Shown here: piece after piece, positions 2,681-46,206 of the stretch
How positions within the stretch are numbered: the stretch's first letter is position 1
How the letters are laid out: each line of letters starts with the position of its first letter
Source of the DNA: an uncultured Acidobacteriota bacterium
GTDB lineage: Bacteria; Acidobacteriota; Vicinamibacteria; Vicinamibacterales; CAVVIG01
Reading direction: 5' to 3'
NCBI GenBank assembly: GCA_963792785.1
Contig: CAWBXO010000004.1
Span: forward strand, 1,282,278-1,346,277
Length of the DNA: 64,000 bases
Made by a program: the position numbers and the translations under genes
Notes under the pieces: generated by a model
The model's database searches: none
What the model was told of the DNA's origin: nothing
Seen by the model: only the letters and a program-made list of their open reading frames with translations

Positions 2681-3447
2681 TACCGGAGGCATGTGAGGTG
2701 CCGCCCGCCGTCGATCGGGATCGTTTCGCCCGTCATGTTCGCCGCGCGATCTGAGGCGAGAAACAGAATCAAGCTCGCGACTTCATCCGCCTCGCCGGCT
2801 CGTCCAAGCGGATGCGTCGTCTTCGAGCGCTCGAGAAACGACGCATACGCCGCGTCGTCCATGCCGCCGCGCTTGTGCAGGTTCGTCACCGTCACACCGG
2901 GGTTCACCGCGTTCACGCGCACGCCGAACGGCGCCATCTCGAGCGCGGCGCACCGCGTGAGCTGATCCACCGCCGACTTGCTGACGCAGTACGCGAGCAC
3001 GCCGGGGAATGACCGCAGGCCGTTCACGCTCGACACGTTCACGATCGAACCCTTCCGCACTTTCAGGTGCGGCGCCGCCGCGCGCATCAGCCGGAACGGC
3101 GCGCGCACGTTGATGTTCATCATCAGGTCCCACGCCGCGTCTTCGGTCGTCTCGACGGTGCCGGTCCCGATGATGCCGGCCGCGTTCACGAGAATATCGA
3201 GGCCGCCGAAGCCGTCGACCGCCTCGGAGACGACGCGATCGGGCGCGTCCGGATCGGTGAGGTCGGCGCGGCACACGCGCGCGCGGCCGCCGGCTTCGAT
3301 GATGGCCCGCTCGGCCTGCGCGATGGCCGCATCGCTGCGGCCGACCAGCACCACGGAGCCGCCCGCCCGGGCAAAGGCCTCGGCGGTCGCCCGGCCGATG
3401 CCACTCGACGCTCCCGTCACGACGATTACTTTCTTGGAGAAGGGCAT
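2680..3447 (-). CDS. SDR family oxidoreductase (FabG-like short-chain dehydrogenase)
   Basis: 255 aa with TGASSGIGRA cofactor motif, NAAG, S-x12-YCVSK catalytic triad and PGVTVT. Confidence 0.9.
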   Translation of the reverse strand: MPFSKKVIVVTGASSGIGRATAEAFARAGGSVVLVGRSDAAIAQAERAIIEAGGRARVCRADLTDPDAPDRVVSEAVDGFGGLDILVNAAGIIGTGTVETTEDAAWDLMMNINVRAPFRLMRAAAPHLKVRKGSIVNVSSVNGLRSFPGVLAYCVSKSAVDQLTRCAALEMAPFGVRVNAVNPGVTVTNLHKRGGMDDAAYASFLERSKTTHPLGRAGEADEVASLILFLASDRAANMTGETIPIDGGRHLTCLR

Positions 3448-15160: not shown

Positions 15161-15372
15161 AACCACAGAGGCACAGAGGTCGTCCGGTGCGGTGATCGGC
15201 GCGGACGGCCTGCGTCGCAGGCCGCAGTCCAAGGGAAGAAGACCGGAGGACGCAAGCCCGGAGGGCCAGGCTGGGCTTGTGTCCTCCGGTCTTCTTCCCT
15301 TGGACGGGCCGCCTACGGCGGCCCGCGCCGATCACCCGCGATCCGTCTCCGTGTCTCTGTGTCTCTGTGGTT
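15161..15372. repeat. 212-bp nested palindromic element with CACAGAGG-repeat termini (family member 1)
   Basis: Termini AACCACAGAGGCACAGAGG and CTCTGTGTCTCTGTGGTT. 12-bp stem at 15191-15202/15325-15336. Perfect 25-bp stem at 15227-15251/15281-15305. Two flanking 8-bp hairpins. Confidence 0.9.
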
Positions 15373-21276: not shown

Positions 21277-22055
21277 GACTGCTGCTCGCCCTGCCGTTCG
21301 TGTTCGCCGCCGCCGCCGTGTTCGCCCAGACGCCCGCGCCGCCCGACGTGGCCGCGCCGCCCGCCGACGCGCAGAAGACGCCGTCGGGCCTGGCGTCGAA
21401 GGTGCTGACGAAGGGCACCGGCACGGCCCACCCCTCGAAGACCGACGTGGTCACCGTGCACTACACGGGCTGGACGACCGACGGCAAGATGTTCGACAGC
21501 TCGTACGCGCGCGGCGAGAAGGCGACGTTTCCGCTGGACCGCGTGATCGCGGGCTGGACCGAAGGCGTGCAGCAGATGGTCGTGGGCGAGAAGCGCCGCT
21601 TCTGGATTCCGGAGAACCTGGCCTACAAGGGCCTGCGCGATCCGAAGGGCATGCTGGTGTTCGACGTGGAGCTCTTCTCCTTCGCGCCGTCGCCGACGAT
21701 CCCGCCGCCCGACGTGAAGGCGCCGCCCGCCGACGCGACGAAGACGGCGTCGGGCCTGGCCTACAAGGTGCTGCGGCCCGGCACGGGCACGCGCCATCCG
21801 GCGGCGACGAGCCAGGTCACGGTGGACTACTCGGGTTGGACGACCGACGGGAAGCTCTTCGACAGCTCGATCACACGCGGCGAGCCGGCGACGTTTCCGC
21901 TGAACGGTGTGATCAAGGGCTGGACCGAGGGCGTGCAGCTCATGGTGGAAGGCGAGAAGGCGAGGTTCTGGATTCCCGAGAACCTCGCCTACCAGGGCCA
22001 GCAGCCGCCGTACGGCTTGCTCGTGTTCGACGTAGAGCTGCTGCAGATCAAATAG
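21273..22055 (+). CDS. secreted FKBP-type peptidyl-prolyl isomerase with two tandem FKBP domains
   Basis: Signal peptide, then two copies of V.Y.GWTTDGK.FDSS...FPL..VI.GWTEGVQ.MV.GEK.RFWIPENLAY. The ATG overlaps the LOG stop (ATGA). Confidence 0.9.
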   Translation: MRLLLALPFVFAAAAVFAQTPAPPDVAAPPADAQKTPSGLASKVLTKGTGTAHPSKTDVVTVHYTGWTTDGKMFDSSYARGEKATFPLDRVIAGWTEGVQQMVVGEKRRFWIPENLAYKGLRDPKGMLVFDVELFSFAPSPTIPPPDVKAPPADATKTASGLAYKVLRPGTGTRHPAATSQVTVDYSGWTTDGKLFDSSITRGEPATFPLNGVIKGWTEGVQLMVEGEKARFWIPENLAYQGQQPPYGLLVFDVELLQIK

Positions 22056-22617: not shown

Positions 22618-22698
22618 GGTCGTCTCCTCTGTGGTTAACCTGTGAACGATTGACTAGTCATGTAATTGAGCCGATCGCGTCCTCGTGTCGCGGCTCGG

Positions 22699-26261: not shown

Positions 26262-26272
26262 TGACCGCCCTT

Positions 26273-26312
26273 CCGCATTCCTGCATTCTTGCATTTCCGC
26301 CTTCGTGCATTT
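26273..26312. repeat. degenerate CTGCATTC octamer array (third copy of the GCAGGAAT family)
   Basis: ccgcattc ctgcattc ttgcattt ... gtgcattt fills most of the 43-bp spacer between the divergent peroxiredoxin and Nudix starts. Confidence 0.7.
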
Positions 26313-26952
26313 CACCGATCTCATCGCCCGCCTCGACGCGGGACTGACCCGCCCCCTGCCCGGCCCCGCGGCGCACGCGATTGCCGAGCCGCGGCCACGG
26401 CGCGCGGCCGAGTCGGCCGACGCGCTGCCCCTGCGCGACGCGGCGGGCCTCGCGCTCGTCTGCCCGATCGACGGCCAGGCCCATCTGGTCCTCACCGTGC
26501 GGCACGCCGGGCTGGGGCGCCACGCCGGCCAGGTGTCCTTCCCCGGCGGCGTGGTCGATCCCGGCGAGACGTTCGAGGCGGCGGCGCTCCGGGAAGCGCA
26601 CGAGGAAATCGCCCTCCCCCCGGACGCCGCGCGCGTCCTCGGCCGGCTCACCCCGATCGACATCGCCGTCTCCGGCTTCCGCCTCCACCCCATCGTCGCC
26701 GCCACGGACGCGCGGCCGGTGCTGGTGCCCGCCGACGCGGAAGTGGAGCAGATTCTTGAGGTTGCCTTCGACGAGCTGACCGATCCCGGGCGGCTGCGCC
26801 TCACCGAGCGGCGGCGGGGCGCGCTGGTCGTCGAGGCGCCCGCCTTCCTGGTCGGGGGCGTGGACCTCTGGGGCGCCACGGCCATGGCCGTCGCCGAGCT
26901 CCTCGTCGTCGCGGGCTGGAAGGGGCGCCGGCCAGGGCGATCTCCGGCGTGA
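26305..26952 (+). CDS. NUDIX hydrolase (CoA pyrophosphatase-like)
   Basis: Nudix box GQVSFPGGVVDPGETFEAAALREAHEEIAL. The start is set at GTG 26305 because the track start reads through the repeat. Confidence 0.8.
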   Translation: MHFTDLIARLDAGLTRPLPGPAAHAIAEPRPRRAAESADALPLRDAAGLALVCPIDGQAHLVLTVRHAGLGRHAGQVSFPGGVVDPGETFEAAALREAHEEIALPPDAARVLGRLTPIDIAVSGFRLHPIVAATDARPVLVPADAEVEQILEVAFDELTDPGRLRLTERRRGALVVEAPAFLVGGVDLWGATAMAVAELLVVAGWKGRRPGRSPA

Positions 26953-29341: not shown

Positions 29342-29345
29342 CGTG

Positions 29346-29450
29346 TAGCCGTTAGTTGTTAGCTGTTAGCCGTTAGCTGTTAGCCGTTAGCCGTTAGCTG
29401 TTAGCCGTTAGCTGTTCGCCCTAATGGCTAATGGCTAACGGCTACTGGCT
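29346..29450. repeat. about 105-bp hairpin element made of CYGTTAG heptamers (about 10 units) followed by about 4 inverted CTAAYGG units
   Basis: tagccgttag ttgttag ctgttag ccgttag ... then ctaatgg ctaatgg ctaacgg ctactgg. It starts 5 nt after the glnN stop. Confidence 0.85.
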
Positions 29451-29465
29451 TTATACTGTTCCCCG

Positions 29466-31880
29466 TTGGCCAAGCGTCGATCCAAAGCGCAATCCCTGTT
29501 CGACAACCTGGACGCCGGCGGCAGCGGCGGTGCGGCCGGCGGCCCGCCGTCGTGGCCCGCGCCGATCGAGGCGGTCGCGCTGCACGAGGCCGCGCAGTCC
29601 CGCTACCTCAACTACGCGCTGTCGGTCATCACCGCCCGCGCGCTGCCCGACGTCCGCGACGGCCTGAAGCCCGTCCAGCGCCGCATCCTGTACACGATGT
29701 GGCAGCAGAACCTGACCGCCGACGTCAAGCACCGGAAGTGCGCGAAAGTCGTCGGCGACGTGATGGGCAGCTTCCACCCGCACGGCGACGCCGCGCTCTA
29801 CGAGACGCTCGTGCGCATGGCGCAGCCCTTCTCGCTGCGCTATCCCCTGGTCGACGGCTCCGGCAACTTCGGATCGCTCGACGGCGACAGCGCCGCGGCC
29901 ATGCGCTACACCGAGTGCCGGCTGGCGAGAATCAGCGACGAGCTGCTCACCGAGATCGAGCAGTCGACGGTGCCGTTCCGGCCCAACTACGACGGCACGA
30001 AGACCGAGCCCGTCGTGCTGCCGGCGCGGATCCCCAACCTGCTGGTCAACGGCGCCACCGGCATTGCCGTCGGCATGGCGACCAACGTGCCGCCGCACAA
30101 CCTGGCCGAGGTCTGCACGGCGCTCATCAAGCTCCTCGACAACGAGGACATGGGCAATACCGCGCTGTGCCGCGTGATCAAGGGTCCCGACTTCCCCACC
30201 GGCGGACAGATCCTGAACTCGCCCGAGGAGCTGCGCGAGATCTACCGGACGGGATCCGGATCGATCCGGCTGCGCGGCACGTGGGACATCGGGCCGGACA
30301 CGCGCTCGACCAAGACGATCTTCATCGACAGCATTCCGTACACGGTGAACAAGTCGACGCTCGTCGAGCGGATCGCCGAGGTGGTGCTGAGCCGCAAGCT
30401 GCCGCAGCTCCTCGACGTGAAGGATCTCTCGACCGAGGACGTCCGCATCGCGCTCGAGCTGAAGAAGGACGCCGACGAGAAGATGATCATGGCGTATCTC
30501 TTCAAGCACACGCCGCTGCAGATCAACGTGGTGGTGAACCTCACCTGCCTGATTCCGACCGAGCAGGCGGAAGTGGGACGGCCCGAGCGCCTGGATCTCA
30601 AGTCGATCCTGTGGCACTTCCTGCACTTCCGCCTCGACGTGGTCACGCGCCGGCTCGAGCACGAGCTCGCCACGCTCAAGAAGCGCATCCACATCCTCGA
30701 GGGCCTCGCCACGGTCTTCGACGCGCTCGACGAGATCATCAAGATCATCCGCAAGTCGGACGGCAAGGCCGACGCCGCGGAGAAGATCATGAAGCGGTTC
30801 GAGCTCGACGCCGACCAGACCGACGCGATCCTCGAGCTGAAGATCTACCGCCTCGCCCGCCTCGAGATCCTCGTGATCCGCGAGGAGCTCGACGAGAAGA
30901 AGAAGCGCGCGCGGCAGATCGGCGCGCTGCTCAAGGACGAGGACAGCCGCTGGTCGCTCGTGCGCGGCGAGCTCGACGAGATCCTGAAGACCTACGCCGA
31001 TCCGAAGGCCGACAAGCGGCGCACCCGCATCGCGAGCGACAGCGACGAGCCCGAGTACTCGGCCGACGACTTCATCGTCGAGGAAGACAACGTCGTGATC
31101 GTGTCGCGCGACGGCTGGGTGAAGCGGCAGAAGGACGTCAAGGACCTCTCCACGCAGCGGCTGCGCGAAGGCGACGCCGTGCTGGCGGCGTTCGGCGGGA
31201 GCACGCGCGCCACGTGCGTGTTCTTCTCGAGCGCCGGCGTGGCCTACACGTGCCGGTTCATCGACGTGCCCGCCTCGACCGGCTACGGCGAGCCCATCCA
31301 GAAGCAGTTCAAGCTCAAGGACGGGGAGCGGATCGTCGCGGCAATGAGTCTCGACCCGCGCGTGGCCGGCGCGATCGTGCCGAAGAAAGCCGGCGACCCG
31401 GCCAAGGTTCACGCCGTGGCCGTGTCGAGCGACGGCTACGCGCTGCGGTTCGGTTTGGACGGCCTCGTCGAGCCGAGCACGCGCGCCGGGCGGCGGTACG
31501 CGCGGCCGTCCAAGGACGCGGAGATGCTCGGCGTCGCGCGATACACGGGCGACGAGGTCCTGATCGCCGCCACCGCCGAGGCCCGCGGGATCCTCGCGAA
31601 GGCGGAGGAAGCGAACTTCCTCTCGGGGCCCGGCAAGGGCGTACTGCTGATCAAACTGGGCAAGGACGATCGCGTGCTCGGCTTCATCGCCTCGACGGGC
31701 GACCGCGACCTGCTGACCGTCGAGACGAGCCGCGGCGCCGAGCAGACGATCAGCACGGCGAAGTACGAGGTGACGGGCCGCGGCGGGAAGGGGCGCGAGC
31801 TGCTCCAGCGCGGCCAGTTCGTGAAGATCCTCTGGCCGACGCCGGACGTCCCCGCCCCGCTCGGCCCGGACTCGAAGTAG
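29466..31880 (+). CDS. parC: type IIA topoisomerase subunit A, ParC-like (topoisomerase IV)
   Basis: 804 aa from TTG with [19 protein letters not shown] (Q rather than the gyrase H), HPHGD and active-site AAMRYTE. C-terminal beta-pinwheel repeats. Confidence 0.8.
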
Positions 31881-31885
31881 ATCTC

Positions 31886-32115
31886 AACCACAGAGGACAC
31901 AGAGGCACAGAGGGATCACGCGGTGCACGCTTGACGTGCGCTCGGCGCGGGGCGGCCTGCGCAGCAGGCCGTGGCAGGAGCGAGGGAGACGCGGAGACAT
32001 GCCGCTCTGGATCGTCCGGCGGCATGTCTCCGCGTCTCCCTCGCTCCTGCCGCCCGCCTTCGGCGGCCCCGCGTCGAGCGTTCGGTGCCCTCCGTGCCTC
32101 CGTGTCTCCGTGGTT
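31886..32115. repeat. 230-bp nested palindromic element with CACAGAGG-repeat termini (family member 2)
   Basis: Termini AACCACAGAGGACACAGAGGCACAGAGGG and CCCTCCGTGCCTCCGTGTCTCCGTGGTT. Perfect 32-bp stem at 31973-32004/32020-32051. Flanking hairpins are the same as in member 1. Confidence 0.9.
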
Positions 32116-32153
32116 CAATCCGCTAGTACAATGACAGCGAAAGGAATGCCCAT

Positions 32154-33593
32154 TTGGCTCAAGATCGCCTGAACATTGCAGTTTTCATCGATTTCGACAA
32201 CATCGAGATCGGCGTCCGCACCACCCTCCACGAACATTTCGACGCCGGCACGGTCCTCGAGGCCATCAAGGAGCGGGGCGAGGTCGTCACCAAGATCGCC
32301 TACGCCGACTGGACCCGGGCCGGCGAGTACAGCCGCTCCCTGACCCAGCACGCCATCCGCCTGGTGCAGCGCAACCTCACGCCCGGCGGCGACAAGAACG
32401 GCGCCGACATCAACCTCGCCCTCGACGCGCTCGAGATGGCGTTCACGCACCCGCACATCAACGCCTACGTGATCGTGGGCGGCGACAGCGACTTCCTGTC
32501 GCTGGTGGAAAAGCTCAAGCAGTACGACAAGAAAGTGTTCGTCGTCGGCGGCCGGCAGTTCACGAGCGTGATCCTGCAGCGCAACTGCTACGAGTTCATC
32601 GCCTACGAGAACCTCTCGCGGCCGCGCCGCTCGCAGGGCGGCGTGAAGGACCCGCGCCCCGCGCCCGCCGCCGCGTCCGCGTCGATCGGGCAGGTCGTGC
32701 CGCTCGTCCGCCGCGCGCTCAAGATTCTCGCCGACCGCGAGGTCACGCCGCAGACGGGCCTGCTCAAGAGCACGCTCCTGCAGCTCGACTCGACGTTCTC
32801 CGAGCGCAGCTACGGCGCGAGCTCGTTCCTCGACTTCGCGGAGAAGCTCGCGAAGACGGGCGTCGTGAACCTGAAGCACAGCGGCCGCAGCGTCACCGTC
32901 GAGCTGAACGAGGGCGTCGAGTTCGCCGAGGCGCCGGCGGACGCGCCGGCCGAGGCGGACGCCGCCACGCCGGCTGCCGCGCCGGTTGCGCCGGACCCGC
33001 AGGGCCGGCCGCCGGTCGAGGCCACCGAGTCGCAGGCCGACGGCGTGCGTCTGGTCGCCGAGATCCTCGGCGCCGCCGCGAACGCGCGATGGCCGATGTA
33101 CGTGCGCAACCTGAAGCAGATCCTGCGGCAGGCCGATCGCGGGTTCGACGAGCGCCGCTTCGGCTTCGGCGGGCTGATGGATCTCGTCCGCGCGTGCCAG
33201 CGCGACAACCTGCTGCGCGTCGAGCGCGACCGCCGCGGCGGCATGCGCGTCTTCCCCGGCGCCGCGCTGCAGCGCCAGGCGCCCGCACCCGCCCTTCCGC
33301 AGCCGGACGTCGAAGCCGAGGAAGCCGGGCTCCCGGACATGCCGTTGATGACAGCCGAGAGCGAGGCCGGCTTCGAGACGGACGCCGACAGCGACGGAGA
33401 CGAGGCGCCGCAGCCGGATCTCGTCGACACCACCGCCGAGCTCCTCGGCCGGGCGAAGGCCCGCCCGCGCCGCGCGAAGGCCGCACCCGCGGCCGGCGCG
33501 CGCAAGACGACGACCCGCACGCGCAAGCCCGCCACGCGCCGCGCCGCGAAGGGCAAGAAAGCGCAGGCGGATGATGGGGACGGAAACCGCTAG
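32154..33593 (+). CDS. NYN (LabA-like PIN) domain protein with two OST-HTH/LOTUS-like domains and a basic tail
   Basis: IAVFIDFDN ... GKNGADINLALD ... VIVGGDSDFLSLVEKLKQYDKKVFVVG. Two repeats of about 70 aa end in FGF/YGA..L.DF. C-terminal Lys/Arg-rich tail. Confidence 0.75.
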   Translation: MAQDRLNIAVFIDFDNIEIGVRTTLHEHFDAGTVLEAIKERGEVVTKIAYADWTRAGEYSRSLTQHAIRLVQRNLTPGGDKNGADINLALDALEMAFTHPHINAYVIVGGDSDFLSLVEKLKQYDKKVFVVGGRQFTSVILQRNCYEFIAYENLSRPRRSQGGVKDPRPAPAAASASIGQVVPLVRRALKILADREVTPQTGLLKSTLLQLDSTFSERSYGASSFLDFAEKLAKTGVVNLKHSGRSVTVELNEGVEFAEAPADAPAEADAATPAAAPVAPDPQGRPPVEATESQADGVRLVAEILGAAANARWPMYVRNLKQILRQADRGFDERRFGFGGLMDLVRACQRDNLLRVERDRRGGMRVFPGAALQRQAPAPALPQPDVEAEEAGLPDMPLMTAESEAGFETDADSDGDEAPQPDLVDTTAELLGRAKARPRRAKAAPAAGARKTTTRTRKPATRRAAKGKKAQADDGDGNR

Positions 33594-33605: not shown

Positions 33606-36327
33606 CTAATTCAGGAACGCCAGCCACTGGCGCACGAGCTCGACCTGGACGCCGCCGGCCTGTTCATAGGCGGCGGCGTACTTCTTCGCGAGCGCCGCGT
33701 CCTCCGCGGGTGAGTGCGCCGACGCGCCGGCGAGCTTCAGGTTGTAGATCCACTCCACCGCCCGCTCCAGCGCCTCCACATCGTCGGGCCGCGCGTCGAG
33801 GTAGCGCTCCATCGTGCGCACGGCCTCGCGGCCCTGGCCGAATGTCGCGTACAGCATCGCCAGCGGACGCGTGAGGCGCGGGTCGGAGGGCCACTTGGCA
33901 ATGCCCTCGTCGAGGATGGACCGCGCGGCGTTCATGTCGCGGTCCCGCAGCAGCGCCTCCGCCAGCCACTGGTAAATCTCGGGGATGTCGCCGCCGTCGA
34001 TGAGCGCGGTCTGCCAGGCGCCGCTGGCCTCCTGGTCGTGGCCCGATGCGGCATAGGTGGCCGCGAGGTAGACCAGCGCGGGCAGGCTGTCCACCTCGGG
34101 ACGGATCGCGTCCTTGAAGCGCTCCTCCGCTTTCGGATAGTCGCCGGCCGCGAGCGCCTTCACGCCGGCGTCGAACGCCGGCCGCACGCTGGCGTCGACG
34201 CGCGCCTCGAAGCGAGCGAGCGCGGGCGCCGCCAGGGCCTCGCCCTTCTCGAACGGCGACGTGAAGTCGCTCTGCTCGACGGGGAGGAACAGGTCCGCCT
34301 CGCCGGCCGCGGCCGGGCGCCGGGATCCGGCGGCCGACGTCAGCAGCACGTCGGGCGGCGCGATGTCGAACGCCCGCGCGAGCCGCGACACCTCCTCGCC
34401 GTTCTCCGTCACGATCGCGCGCAGGTAGTACGAACCGGGCGGCAGCTGGCGGATCGCCATGACGTGCGAGAACATCGTGCGCGTCGGCCCCGCCGGCGCG
34501 CCCGGCACGTCTTCGCCCATGATCGCGGGGCCGTCCTCGGACGCGGCGATCTCGTACCGCACCGCGAGCGACGAGGAGGTGCGGCCGTACGCCTCGAGGT
34601 AGCCCTGCACGACGCCGAAGTTCGCGGCGGGCGTGACCATGGGCTGGAGGCGCTCGGTCAGATCCGTGGGACCGCCGACCATGAGATCGCTCAGGTCCGC
34701 CTGGCCGCCGGCGACGAGTCCGGCGTGGAACGCGTGCTCGACGCTGCCCACGCGGTCCCCTTCCGCGACCGCGAGCTTCAGCGTGTAGTCCCCGGGCGGC
34801 AGGCTCGCGCCGGCCGTGTAGAGGAGCGGCGACGGCACGCCGTTCATCACGGGACCCACGCGCGCCGAGGCGCCCAGGCTCGTGACATCGCGGCCGTTCT
34901 CGTCGGCAATCACGTAGGCGACCGCGATCTGGCGGTTCGCCGTGTACTGCTGGCCGACGTCCGCGTGGATCAGCAGCTGCACCTTCGTCGGATCCTGGTC
35001 GCGGAGCGAGAACGTGACCACGCGCAGCGGGAGCGCCGACGAGAGCAGCGGCGCCGTGATGGCCGCCATCACTTCCTGGCTCATCGACCGCGGCTGGTCC
35101 GGCTCGGCCGCCGTCCCGTCGAGGAGCGATCGGCGCGCGCGCACCGTCGCGCCGGCGCGCGACACGCGCACGCGGATCGGATGGGGCTTCCCGTCGCGAT
35201 CGCTCGGCGCCGACTCGACGCCGAGCAGGTAGTAGCCGGAAATCTCCGAGCCGATCTTGTCGAAGAGCTGCTGGCCGGTTCCCGTCACGTTGAACACCGC
35301 GCCGCGGCTCGCGGCCGCGAGCGCCATCACGCCGGTCGTCCGCCGCTGGCGGTCCTCGCCGCGGGCCGTGTCCCCGCTCGGCATGTTGACGTCGAAGTAG
35401 GAGTTGTCGAGCTTCAGCACGTAGATGCTGGTCCGCGACGCCGACGCCAGGCGCCGAGCTCGGTGACGGGCGACTCGTGCGGTCCTGCATGACGAAGCCC
35501 TCCGTCATGATCACCATCGTCTTCGGACGCGTCGATGGTGGCCAGGCCCTTCAGCAGCTCCCGCAGGCCGCGGATCGTCTGGGTGCCCTACGTTCCCGAG
35601 CCGTCCGCGCGATGTCGCGCGCGTCGTCGCGGACGGACGAGGGGCAGATCGTTGGCCGACGGGCGCCGCCGCGCCGCCGCCGCCTCCAGCGCCGCACTCG
35701 CGCTCGGTCGACGCTCTGCAGCACCTGCTCGTCGCCGCGCTCGATGGCGAGCGCCTCGGCGAGCGACATGTGCGTCGCCGTGATGCTGCCGGCGGTCGCC
35801 GCCTCCATCTGGCCGTGCATCGTCGCAATCGCGGCCTTCAGATCGCTCGCGGTCCGGCCAGGAACGCCGTCGAGCGCCCGCCCGTGCCGAAGCCGACCAC
35901 GGCGACGCGATCGGCGGGCTGGAGCGTGTCGAGGAACTCGCCCGCGGCCTTCAGCAGTCATCTGCCCGCCGCCGAACCGGATGTTCGGCTGATCGACGAC
36001 GAGCACGATCAGGCGTCCGGCGGTGCCGCCTTCGTTCGAGCTGTAGCCCTCGGGCAGCGGCGGCGGCGGCGCGGCGTTCGCGTCAGGCAGCATCGACACC
36101 CAGTCGGCCGACACGACGCGGCGAGGCCGGCCGTCGACGTCGACCGTGAACTCGCCGGCGCCGAGATCGGTGATCGGGCGGCTCGCGCCGTCGACGACGG
36201 TCGCGTCGATCGACGTGACCTCGACAGCCGAGCGGAAGACGGGCGGCTGCGTGGGCGCCTGCGCCGCCGGGCGCGCGACGAGGGCGGCGAGCGCCGCGAC
36301 GAGCAGGCCGGCGCGGCGGCGGGTCAC
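33606..36327 (-). pseudogene. VWA-related (acidobacterial type) plus C-terminal TPR protein, disrupted by about seven frameshifts between about 35452 and 35958
   Basis: The N-terminus from GTG 36327 (PVFRSAVEVTSIDATVVD...LVVDQPNIRFGGG) and the 604-aa C-terminal ORF (TSIYVLKLDNSYFDV...TPR) are intact. The middle can only be read by hopping frames: LLKAAGEFLDTLQPADRVAVVGFGTGG / ALDG..LKAAIATMHGQ..QSVDR / ICPSSVRDDARDIARTARE / GTQTIRGLRELLKGLATIDAS / KTMVIMTEGFVMQD / ESPVTELGA. Confidence 0.7.
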
Positions 36328-46022: not shown

Positions 46023-46035
46023 GTCGGGGCTTCCT

Positions 46036-46202
46036 AGAGGTTCTGGAGGTTCCAGGGGTTCTGGGGGTTCTGGAGGTCGGGTTCCAAGGTTCGATGGTTC
46101 GGAGGTGCAAGGGTTCCACACGGGAACCTGTTGAACTTTCGAACGTCCGAACATTAGAACCCGACCCCCAGAACCCCCAGAACCCCTGGAGCCTCCAGAA
46201 CC
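46036..46202. repeat. about 167-bp palindromic element with GGTTCTGG/CCAGAACC tandem arms between convergent genes
   Basis: GGTTCTGG at 46039, 46057 and 46066. CCAGAACC at 46168, 46177 and 46195. GGTCGGGTTC (46075-46084) pairs with GAACCCGACC (46157-46166). Central GGTTCC-acacg-GGAACC. Confidence 0.85.
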
Positions 46203-46206
46203 GCTG

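Follow-up and report, generated by a model that had tools for sequence, protein, structure and literature searches.

A dispersed composite palindrome downstream of parC in an uncultured acidobacterium: paired arms, covariation and no strand bias

The DNA analysed here (the window) is a stretch of 64,000 nucleotides from an uncultured Acidobacteriota bacterium of the order Vicinamibacterales. The element under study, termed m2, is a composite palindrome which starts a few nucleotides past the stop codon of parC, the gene for topoisomerase IV subunit A, and a paralogue, m1, lies elsewhere in the window. Both seem somewhat more probably than otherwise to be gene-less, non-autonomous copies of a palindromic DNA repeat that is dispersed in Vicinamibacterales-like Acidobacteriota, resembling in kind repetitive extragenic palindromic (REP) sequences, MITEs (miniature inverted-repeat transposable elements) and foldback elements. 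The family has spread to about a hundred intergenic sites. Its stems stay paired while their sequence drifts, and the evidence points to a selfish DNA palindrome in preference to a guide RNA or a strand-specific RNA gene.

Architecture and covariation of the element family

An earlier note, made from the sequence alone, had proposed a single architecture for m1 and m2. Direct reading of the arrays, hairpin 1 and the hairpin 3 core confirms this: both copies have CACRGAGR 8-mers in inverted terminal arrays and, within these, an outer stem, then hairpin 1, a central hairpin of 33 bp and hairpin 3. The features are as follows.

31886–32115, + strand: m2, the whole composite palindrome, 230 bp, 3' of the topoisomerase IV subunit A gene
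31886–31913, + strand: left terminal array of tandem 8-mer units, AAC followed by CACAGAGG, A, CACAGAGG and CACAGAGG; pairs with 32088–32115 in the RNA and DNA folds
31914–31952, + strand: left spacer with a small local hairpin, and the 5' half of the outer stem (..GCGCTCGGCGCGGGG), from the RNA and DNA folds
31953–31971, + strand: hairpin 1, CGGCCTGC-gca-GCAGGCCG; stem identical in m1 (15206–15224); search anchor
31973–32051, + strand: central hairpin, arms 31973–32005 and 32019–32051, 33 nt, 100% complementary, with a 13-nt tip
32052–32068, + strand: hairpin 3, (C)CCGCC-ttc-GGCGG(CC); core 32054–32066 identical in m1 (15309–15321); search anchor
32069–32087, + strand: 3' half of the outer stem (CCCGCGTCGAGCG) and right spacer, from the folds and family covariation
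32088–32115, + strand: right terminal array, G-CCTCCGTG, CCTCCGTG, TCTCCGTG and GTT; the left array inverted, with A/G transitions
15161–15372, + strand: m1, paralogous member, 212 bp; a cytochrome-c-region gene stops 10 nt before it and a UPF0182 gene lies downstream

The parC open reading frame (ORF; ParC/GyrA family) has its stop at 31880. The termini of m2 are as first described, with CACAGAGG three times at 31889–31913 and the inverted array CCCTCCGTGCCTCCGTGTCTCCGTGGTT at 32088–32115, and the outer stem pairs about 31935–31952 with 32067–32082. The RNA fold of m2 has an energy of -191 kcal/mol (z = -17) and the DNA fold one of -113 kcal/mol (z = -16); in the predicted fold the single strand forms one closed four-way junction. 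No terminator-like site was found in 31700–32300, where m2 ends in ...GTGGTTCAATCC without a U tract after the hairpin, and no sigma-70-like promoter was found in or beside m2.

The central stems of the two copies are related. That of m2 is perfect, as the earlier note had it, and is one pair longer than the 32 bp given there. The arms of m1 (15227–15259 and 15273–15305) are 33 nt long and 97% complementary, with one G-T; the perfect stem of 25 bp previously ascribed to m1 is the perfect portion of this longer one. The two stems had also been called unrelated and completely different. Their 5' arms, rich in purines, agree at about 14 of 26 aligned positions (about 54%), differ mostly by A/G transitions and both fit the family consensus ..GGAAACAAGCCGC-loop-GCGGCTTGTTTCC.., so that they are better described as diverged homologues. 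In the terminal arms the differences read on the + strand as A-C in m2 and G-T in m1. All substitutions there are transitions, as had been noted, and there is one 1-nt indel besides.

A search for AACCACAGAGG with at most one mismatch gave four matches in the window against 0.3 expected, and a window scan with a covariance model found m1 (85.8 bits) and m2 as the only copies. Two candidates for further copies were rejected: the third AACCACAGAGG match, at 22626–22636 on the minus strand, consists of one unit only, placed before an ATG, and a covariance-model match at 36100–36217 (27.7 bits) lies in an ORF-dense, GC-rich stretch without anchor hairpins or arrays.

To find the family, metagenome contigs were searched with a pattern of hairpin 1, 70–100 nt and hairpin 3. 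At least 120 loci matched, and among those listed 106 are true members, with 95 unique central stems and about 98 distinct flank contexts; the remaining matches were rejected as chance matches in coding DNA. With more than 100 members, m1 and m2 belong to one element family and are not two chance look-alikes, and far more than two copies exist. Two copies share a contig at L133 and likewise at L164; the covariance model found one further copy (at L164) in 622 kb of metagenome DNA and no match in about 65 kb of DNA from relatives.

The central hairpins of the members listed have a median of 32 pairs and usually contain one to four wobbles or mismatches. The earlier note had raised the prospect of stems that are always perfect and always different. 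In the first count no member had a fully Watson–Crick, unbroken central hairpin, with m1 and m2 among the cleanest; the stems do nearly always differ, and they are always paired. No decayed central region turned up with a search pattern that required hairpins 1 and 3 to be intact. Across members the tip of the central stem has the consensus GGAAACAAGCCGC-loop-GCGGCTTGTTTCC, while the shared outer stem occurs in two covarying variants, GGTCGCC..GGCGACC and GTTCGAC..GTCGAAC (columns 10/172: GC 45, UA 33; columns 14/165: CG 43, AU 39).

Covariation was measured in an alignment of 91 sequences, with shuffles and slid partners as controls. Standard pairs occupy 95.2% of cells against 82.5% after shuffling, and both sides have changed in 407 cells against 125 in shuffles and 30–84 with slid partners; compensatory change is seen in 25 of 38 pairs. 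The m2 central hairpin is homologous to the other central stems, with its changes compensated. The proposal that pairing is conserved and not sequence is thus supported.

The same data bear on the suggestion that the central stems are guides or spacers, carrying information that matches other loci, which we find hardly credible. As that suggestion would have it, the stems vary from copy to copy and the modules beside them are conserved, but the differences are compensated point changes around a single consensus and not replacements, and the arms of m1 and m2 have no other match in the window at up to five mismatches in 24 nt. Both arms are, moreover, always present, so that a 'spacer' would be sequestered in duplex.

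Complementarity is not static. Between close copies (at most 14 differences) there are 38 single-sided differences against six compensated ones, which indicates that the stems decay by ordinary mutation and regain complementarity only over longer spans. Perfection, then, is not a constant state and has to be restored. No templated double changes were seen at short distance, most differences between close pairs being single-sided.

Strand symmetry, insertion and placement

For the mismatch count, internal, doubly flanked events only were used and shared contexts were collapsed. The strand that runs from hairpin 1 to hairpin 3 carries 88 wobbles and 68 A-C mismatches, the opposite strand 82 and 63, and the RNA folding energies of the two strands differ by a mean of -0.06 kcal/mol. 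Selection on a single RNA strand would be expected to tolerate G-U and avoid A-C on that strand alone. Since G-T and A-C here each occur equally often on the two strands, the constraint is symmetric, acting either at the DNA level or equally on both strands; the earlier note's caution in drawing no strand conclusion was right.

A strand-specific structured RNA gene, of a small RNA, ribozyme-like or riboswitch-like kind, is on this evidence very improbable. It would account for the very strong covariation and the conserved multi-helix architecture, but not for the lack of strand asymmetry in the mismatch counts and folding energies, nor for the high scores that the covariance model gives to the reverse strand. 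Beyond hairpins 1 and 3, which the search fixed, the element is almost all helix; the central tip and other unpaired parts vary freely and there are no evident conserved loops or bulges. Rfam 15 gave no gathering-score match in the window, and a search of four family loci by E-value threshold returned only sub-threshold matches to generic miRNA-precursor hairpins.

Comparison with relatives places both copies in short spacers. In three relatives the spacer between parC and the following NYN-domain gene is 40 bp (L121), 71 bp (L122) and 62 bp (L244) without the element, and in a fourth (L245) it is 180 bp of unrelated sequence, again without the element; these four share 85–87% ParC identity with the window. 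The closest relative, L123 (90% identity), has an element at the same site with the same arrays and hairpin 1, its central 5' arm being about one third different from that of m2. Among the genomes compared, the parC-site element occurs in the window and L123 only. In the window, the conserved upstream region of the NYN gene (GCTAGTACAATGA..GAAAGGA) directly follows m2. At the m1 locus, L260 and L261 (81–82% identity) have 35–36 nt from the stop codon to a conserved TGTGGAATAAT motif, where the window has 9 nt, the 212-bp element and 9 nt. As relatives lack the element in the same spacers, m1 and m2 are, judged by sequence comparison, lineage-specific insertions into short spacers between co-oriented genes. 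The L123 contig stops within the central hairpin of its orthologous element (3301–3420), which suggests that such palindromes break short-read assemblies.

Insertion leaves no target duplication. For 62 elements with defined array ends, adjacent direct repeats were distributed as in a shuffled-partner control, and neither m1 nor m2 has a target-site duplication. Palindromy fades outward from the elements, and the flanks often continue into further array layers.

Copies prefer gene 3' ends. Among the members listed, genes on the hairpin 1 side point toward the element in 52 cases and away in 20, those on the hairpin 3 side toward it in 40 and away in 26, and convergent contexts outnumber divergent ones by 20 to 6. 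This preference is one of the observations that favour a host-selected transcript element, namely an intercistronic or 3'-untranslated super-hairpin which terminates, insulates, stabilises or exposes to RNase III the upstream mRNA, in the manner of REP sequences and bacterial interspersed mosaic elements (BIMEs), its dispersal being secondary. In keeping with such a role, the window copies lie 6–10 nt after a stop and shortly before the conserved -10-like or ribosome-binding region of the next gene, which has the same orientation as the preceding one, and in four of the five gene-bearing loci described below the core faces the 3' end of the gene. A perfect 33-bp duplex would also be long enough to serve as substrate of a double-strand RNase. 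We nonetheless regard this alternative as unlikely, although it deserves more weight than any other rival to the selfish repeat. There is no U-tract terminator; both orientations occur, and in the 20 copies between convergent genes either strand can be read; the equal frequency of G-T and of A-C on the two strands is unexpected for one selected RNA strand; and relatives keep the same gene pairs without the element.

Several observations weigh against a selfish, mobile repeat. No pair of filled and empty sites exact to the nucleotide was obtained, the spacers of relatives being too diverged, and near-identical copies in different flanks are not shown, so that recent movement is not demonstrated. 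No mobilising enzyme was found: the 64-kb window has no gene of the PDDEXK_3 family discussed below, and no screen for Y1/HUH or other transposases was made. Decayed copies are under-sampled, because only loci with hairpins 1 and 3 intact fitted the search pattern. Tandem contexts show a weak orientation bias (hairpin 1 first in 16, against 6), and this bias, taken with the position immediately behind stop codons, allows for selection by the host on a transcript function.

The selfish repeat remains the reading we favour. On it, a structure-recognising enzyme acting in trans would copy or move the element via folded single-stranded or cruciform DNA, as in REP sequences, their doublets (REPINs) and IS200/IS605-type hairpin elements, and not by way of a staggered-cut DDE transposase. 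The symmetric mismatch spectrum, the lack of target duplication and the nesting in palindromes all point to this route. Arm complementarity would be renewed by hairpin-dependent DNA processes, for which the candidates are quasipalindrome template switching, an established mechanism, repair within the folded stem and loss of non-folding copies. If transcribed from parC, the -191 kcal/mol structure six nucleotides past the stop could serve as a 3' barrier or as a target for a double-strand RNase. Such transcript effects are probably a side effect and not the reason that the element exists.

Terminal arrays and GxxExxY gene cassettes

The terminal array units differ among members and include CACGAAG, CACAAAG, CACAGAG, AACGGAG and CGCAGAG. 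The arrays are often themselves enclosed by further layers; L224, L229 and L239, for instance, have (GACTCTACT)n outside (CACAGAGG)n. An extra inverted layer of (GACTCTACT / CTGATTCTA)n lies outside CACAGAGG or CGCAGAG arrays at 290–345 and 905–975 in L224, at 3170–3262 and 3850–3900 in L229, and in L239. These further inverted layers indicate that elements are nested in onion-like shells of different tandem repeats.

The arrays extend well beyond the family. A scan of one genome per species (596 Gb) with the pattern AACCACRGAGR(N)CACRGAGR gave at least 120 loci; those listed come from Acidobacteriota, Planctomycetota, Verrucomicrobiota, Cyanobacteria, Bacteroidota, Spirochaetota, Chloroflexota, several proteobacterial classes, Sorangium and two archaeal metagenome-assembled genomes. 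By chance alone, a few dozen to about 140 two-unit matches could arise in 596 Gb. A third unit is, however, present in 102 of the 152 matches listed against about 0.2% by chance, an excess which argues for real tandem arrays in many phyla. An inverted ...CTCTGTGGTT partner lies within 1.6 kb in 52 of the matches listed, mostly 60–230 bp away.

The Vicinamibacterales core was absent from the cross-phylum array loci among the matches listed. No ORF family recurs next to the arrays in 120 genomes, and L034 and L056 lack a convincing ORF. Transposase cargo was considered and rejected: far-apart array pairs in Nostoc L043 and in L109 flank ordinary genes, and about 2 Mb of loci yielded no recognisable transposase in the longer array-bounded units, which hold ordinary genes or a PDDEXK_3 gene instead.

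Viral contigs in IMG/VR carry AACCAC(R)GAGG arrays at at least 120 loci, with three or more units in 109 of the 142 arrays listed and, among the matches listed, almost always without an inverted partner. The element core itself gave no match in these contigs, and its carriage by phages was rejected. In the examples read, the viral arrays (L262–L381; for instance L268 at 7586, L293 at 9254 and L305 at 2962) end a few bases before an ATG, resembling the 'start-associated sequences' of some phages. One viral contig has five array copies (L328 and L333).

At five loci (L177, L205, L224, L229 and L236) a gene of 125–150 codons lies between the core and one array. It belongs to the PDDEXK_3 / TIGR04256 'GxxExxY' family (Pfam match E = 8e-37). 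Almost all of the 120 closest homologues of the L236 protein start with MNHE(G/E/D)HE.., that is, with ATG and a translated AACCACGAAGG array, and the homologues looked up share one conserved locus, in which comEC is followed by PDDEXK_3 and a convergent mazG, with an inverted array a few bases after the PDDEXK_3 stop. Of these loci only that of L236 contains the core, inserted past the stop codon and before the 3' array; it thus behaves as a separate insert within a pre-existing, array-bounded cassette. In L254 (1501–1540 and 1965–2005; compare L246 and L258) both arrays have switched from CACGAAGG to CACGACGG/CACGATGA (CACGACG/CACGATG), a concerted change of arms across about 450 bp of gene. 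Apart from this single lineage, a comparison of 5' and 3' array identity within and between loci of the comEC–PDDEXK_3–mazG type was not informative.

Among the GxxExxY proteins P0122–P0240, N-termini such as MNHEGHEGHEG derive from the array, and about 20 residues further on there is a conserved MRLPSP; one homologue, P0231, starts at MRLPSP. From their sequences, the annotated starts of these proteins may be artefacts of the in-frame 9-nt array.

Could such a protein act on the core? The AlphaFold2 model of the PDDEXK_3 protein (pLDDT 89) is predicted to have a minimal PD-(D/E)XK fold. Its fold neighbours are lambda exonuclease, the Cas4 protein SSO0001 and a restriction-endonuclease-like protein, with E values of 3e-3 or higher; PADLOC reports marginal Cas4 similarity only. 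A role as junction resolvase was rejected, the PDB fold matches being weak and generic and sequence matches in the PDB absent. This bears on a further alternative, that the element is an architectural or structure-specific protein site, its cruciform or four-way junction being bound or cut by a topoisomerase, a protein of the nucleoid or the GxxExxY protein and its arrays acting as iterated sites. A symmetric constraint at the DNA level would suit such a site, as would the predicted four-way junction of the DNA fold (-113 kcal/mol), the physical linkage of the core to PDDEXK_3 genes at five loci and the iteration of 8–9-nt units, as for multimeric binding. We consider it quite unlikely, given that the modelled protein has generic PD-(D/E)XK matches only and no specific similarity to junction resolvases, and that array units vary widely among members, with at least five unrelated unit types in the window, which argues against one sequence-specific binder.

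A broader view, which we put forward tentatively and think improbable, would make m1 and m2 the gene-less end of an unrecognised, cross-phylum system of array-bounded mini-cassettes. Inverted arrays of 8–9-nt units (of AACCAC-RRAG type and others) would bracket interchangeable cargo: nothing, a junction-forming core, or a GxxExxY/PDDEXK_3 gene with the array as its 5' leader. Insertion and nesting would be structure-directed and without target duplication, the two arrays would co-evolve over hundreds of base pairs, and the arrays directly upstream of ORFs in viral contigs would mark a vehicle or a source.

The window contains further arrays. Between the stop of a glutamine-synthetase-III-like gene (29341) and the parC start, a palindrome at 29345–29450 consists of (TAGCCGT)n, 10.7 copies, followed by inverted (CTAATGG)n, 4.3 copies, with 30-nt arms that are 83% complementary. 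An intergenic palindrome at 46034–46205 has 75-nt arms that are 85% complementary; its left side is built from (GAGGTTCTG)n and (GGTTCGAA)n, its right side from (ACCCCCAGA)n in inverted form. Its units, of a third, unrelated type, follow the same architecture. A low-GC stretch of about 840 bp at 1838–2680 looks like an array-bounded cargo insertion: (AATGCAGG)n, 2.2 copies, overlaps the upstream stop codon, inverted (TGCATTCC)n has 5.8 copies, and two small membrane-like ORFs on the minus strand (75 and 106 aa) have no Pfam match. On the minus strand, array units directly precede start codons at two places: (TTCCTGCA-type)n at 26271–26313 the ATG at about 26262, and one AACCACAGAGGAGACGACC at 22626–22646 another ATG. 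These purine-rich units put Shine–Dalgarno-like motifs at ribosome-binding-site distance. At 21337–22039, Tandem Repeats Finder reports a 366-bp unit in 1.9 copies at 80% identity, apparently a duplication inside coding sequence that has no relation to the element.

Significance and comparison with known systems

Acidobacteriota are among the most abundant soil bacteria and their repeats are almost unannotated. The family appears to be frequent, as the 64-kb window has two copies and a single metagenome scan gave more than 100. It has practical consequences: hairpins break assemblies, as at the L123 contig end, and translated arrays inflate ORF calls, yielding 'MNHEGHEGHEG' and 'TEDTE' N-termini on database proteins. 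The elements also put structures of roughly -190 kcal/mol a few nucleotides past the stop codons of essential genes. As a clean natural case of long stems that stay paired while their sequence drifts without strand bias, the family lends itself to telling selection on RNA apart from the upkeep of palindromes in DNA through template switching or intrastrand repair. For the GxxExxY minigenes, a very large family without assigned function, the link to the element is a first concrete clue from genomic context, one with which the presence of these arrays across many phyla and in phages agrees.

Dispersed intergenic palindromes as such are of a well-known kind, and a full-text literature search found analogues only (PMC4692102, PMC3733652, PMC11602168) and no description of the element. 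The REP sequences and BIMEs of enterobacteria and Pseudomonas, and the REPINs mobilised by Y1-type REP-associated tyrosine transposases (RAYTs), are like it extragenic and multi-copy, form hairpins, lie at gene 3' ends and lack target-site duplications. They also share its conserved structure, with inverted doublets giving long hairpins. REPs are 20–40 bp long with a conserved GTAG or CGTC head (PMC3733652), whereas the present element is 210–230 bp, about six times longer, has a three-hairpin core and terminal arrays of tandem 8-mers, and has no such head at the feet of its hairpins, whether in m1, in m2 or in the family alignment. No RAYT gene turned up, the window ORFs not having been screened against Y1_Tnp and no genome-wide search having been made.

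Bacterial MITEs, including Correia, ERIC/IRU, RUP and Nezha, have been surveyed (PMC11602168). The element resembles MITEs, which are non-coding and 100–400 bp long, have terminal inverted repeats, form one long hairpin and are intergenic with presence/absence polymorphism: m1 and m2 measure 212 and 230 bp, are non-coding, have paired inverted termini and belong to a family of more than 100. It differs in having no target-site duplication and in its termini, which are short tandem arrays and not a transposase-type inverted repeat. No cognate insertion sequence was found in about 2 Mb of loci, and gene-bearing relatives carry a PDDEXK_3 gene and not a transposase. Integron attC sites are likewise recognised as a folded single strand, by structure over sequence, with a variable, palindromic centre. 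In m2, however, there are no RYYYAAC and GTTRRRY boxes in the attC arrangement, the termini being AACCAC... and ...GTGGTT with AAC and GTT outermost; its stems have no extrahelical bases, and its neighbours are parC and an NYN-domain gene, with no cassette array or integrase adjoining. The element thus fails the defining tests of REPs, MITEs, attC sites and Rho-independent terminators, as it has no GTAG or CGTC head, target-site duplication, attC boxes or U tract, and no cognate transposase was recognised in the loci read.

Eukaryotic Foldback (FB) transposons have terminal inverted repeats made of short tandem subrepeats, and the whole element snaps into a hairpin. Being eukaryotic, of kilobase size and flanked by target-site duplications, they offer an architectural analogy only. 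Among published systems, those closest to the shell are the inverted heptamer arrays of Xanthomonas together with the short tandemly repeated repetitive (STRR) sequences of cyanobacteria: intergenic tandem units of 7–9 nt, often in convergent pairs able to form a stem-loop, which match the element's outer shell only. Rehm et al. (2015; PMC4692102) count 70 inverted pairs of GGGAATC heptamer arrays in Xcc and 75 in Xac. The likeness extends to the array palindromes of the window at 29345–29450 and 46034–46205. These systems differ in their units, are discussed as G-quadruplex formers (PMC4692102), and have not been reported with an internal core, nesting or a gene cassette.

Against this background the family appears to be undescribed in Rfam and the searchable literature. 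What appears new is a four-way-junction core inside inverted tandem-octamer shells, the onion-like nesting of array layers, strong covariation without strand bias, occasional residence in GxxExxY cassettes, and shell arrays that are shared with other phyla and with viral contigs.

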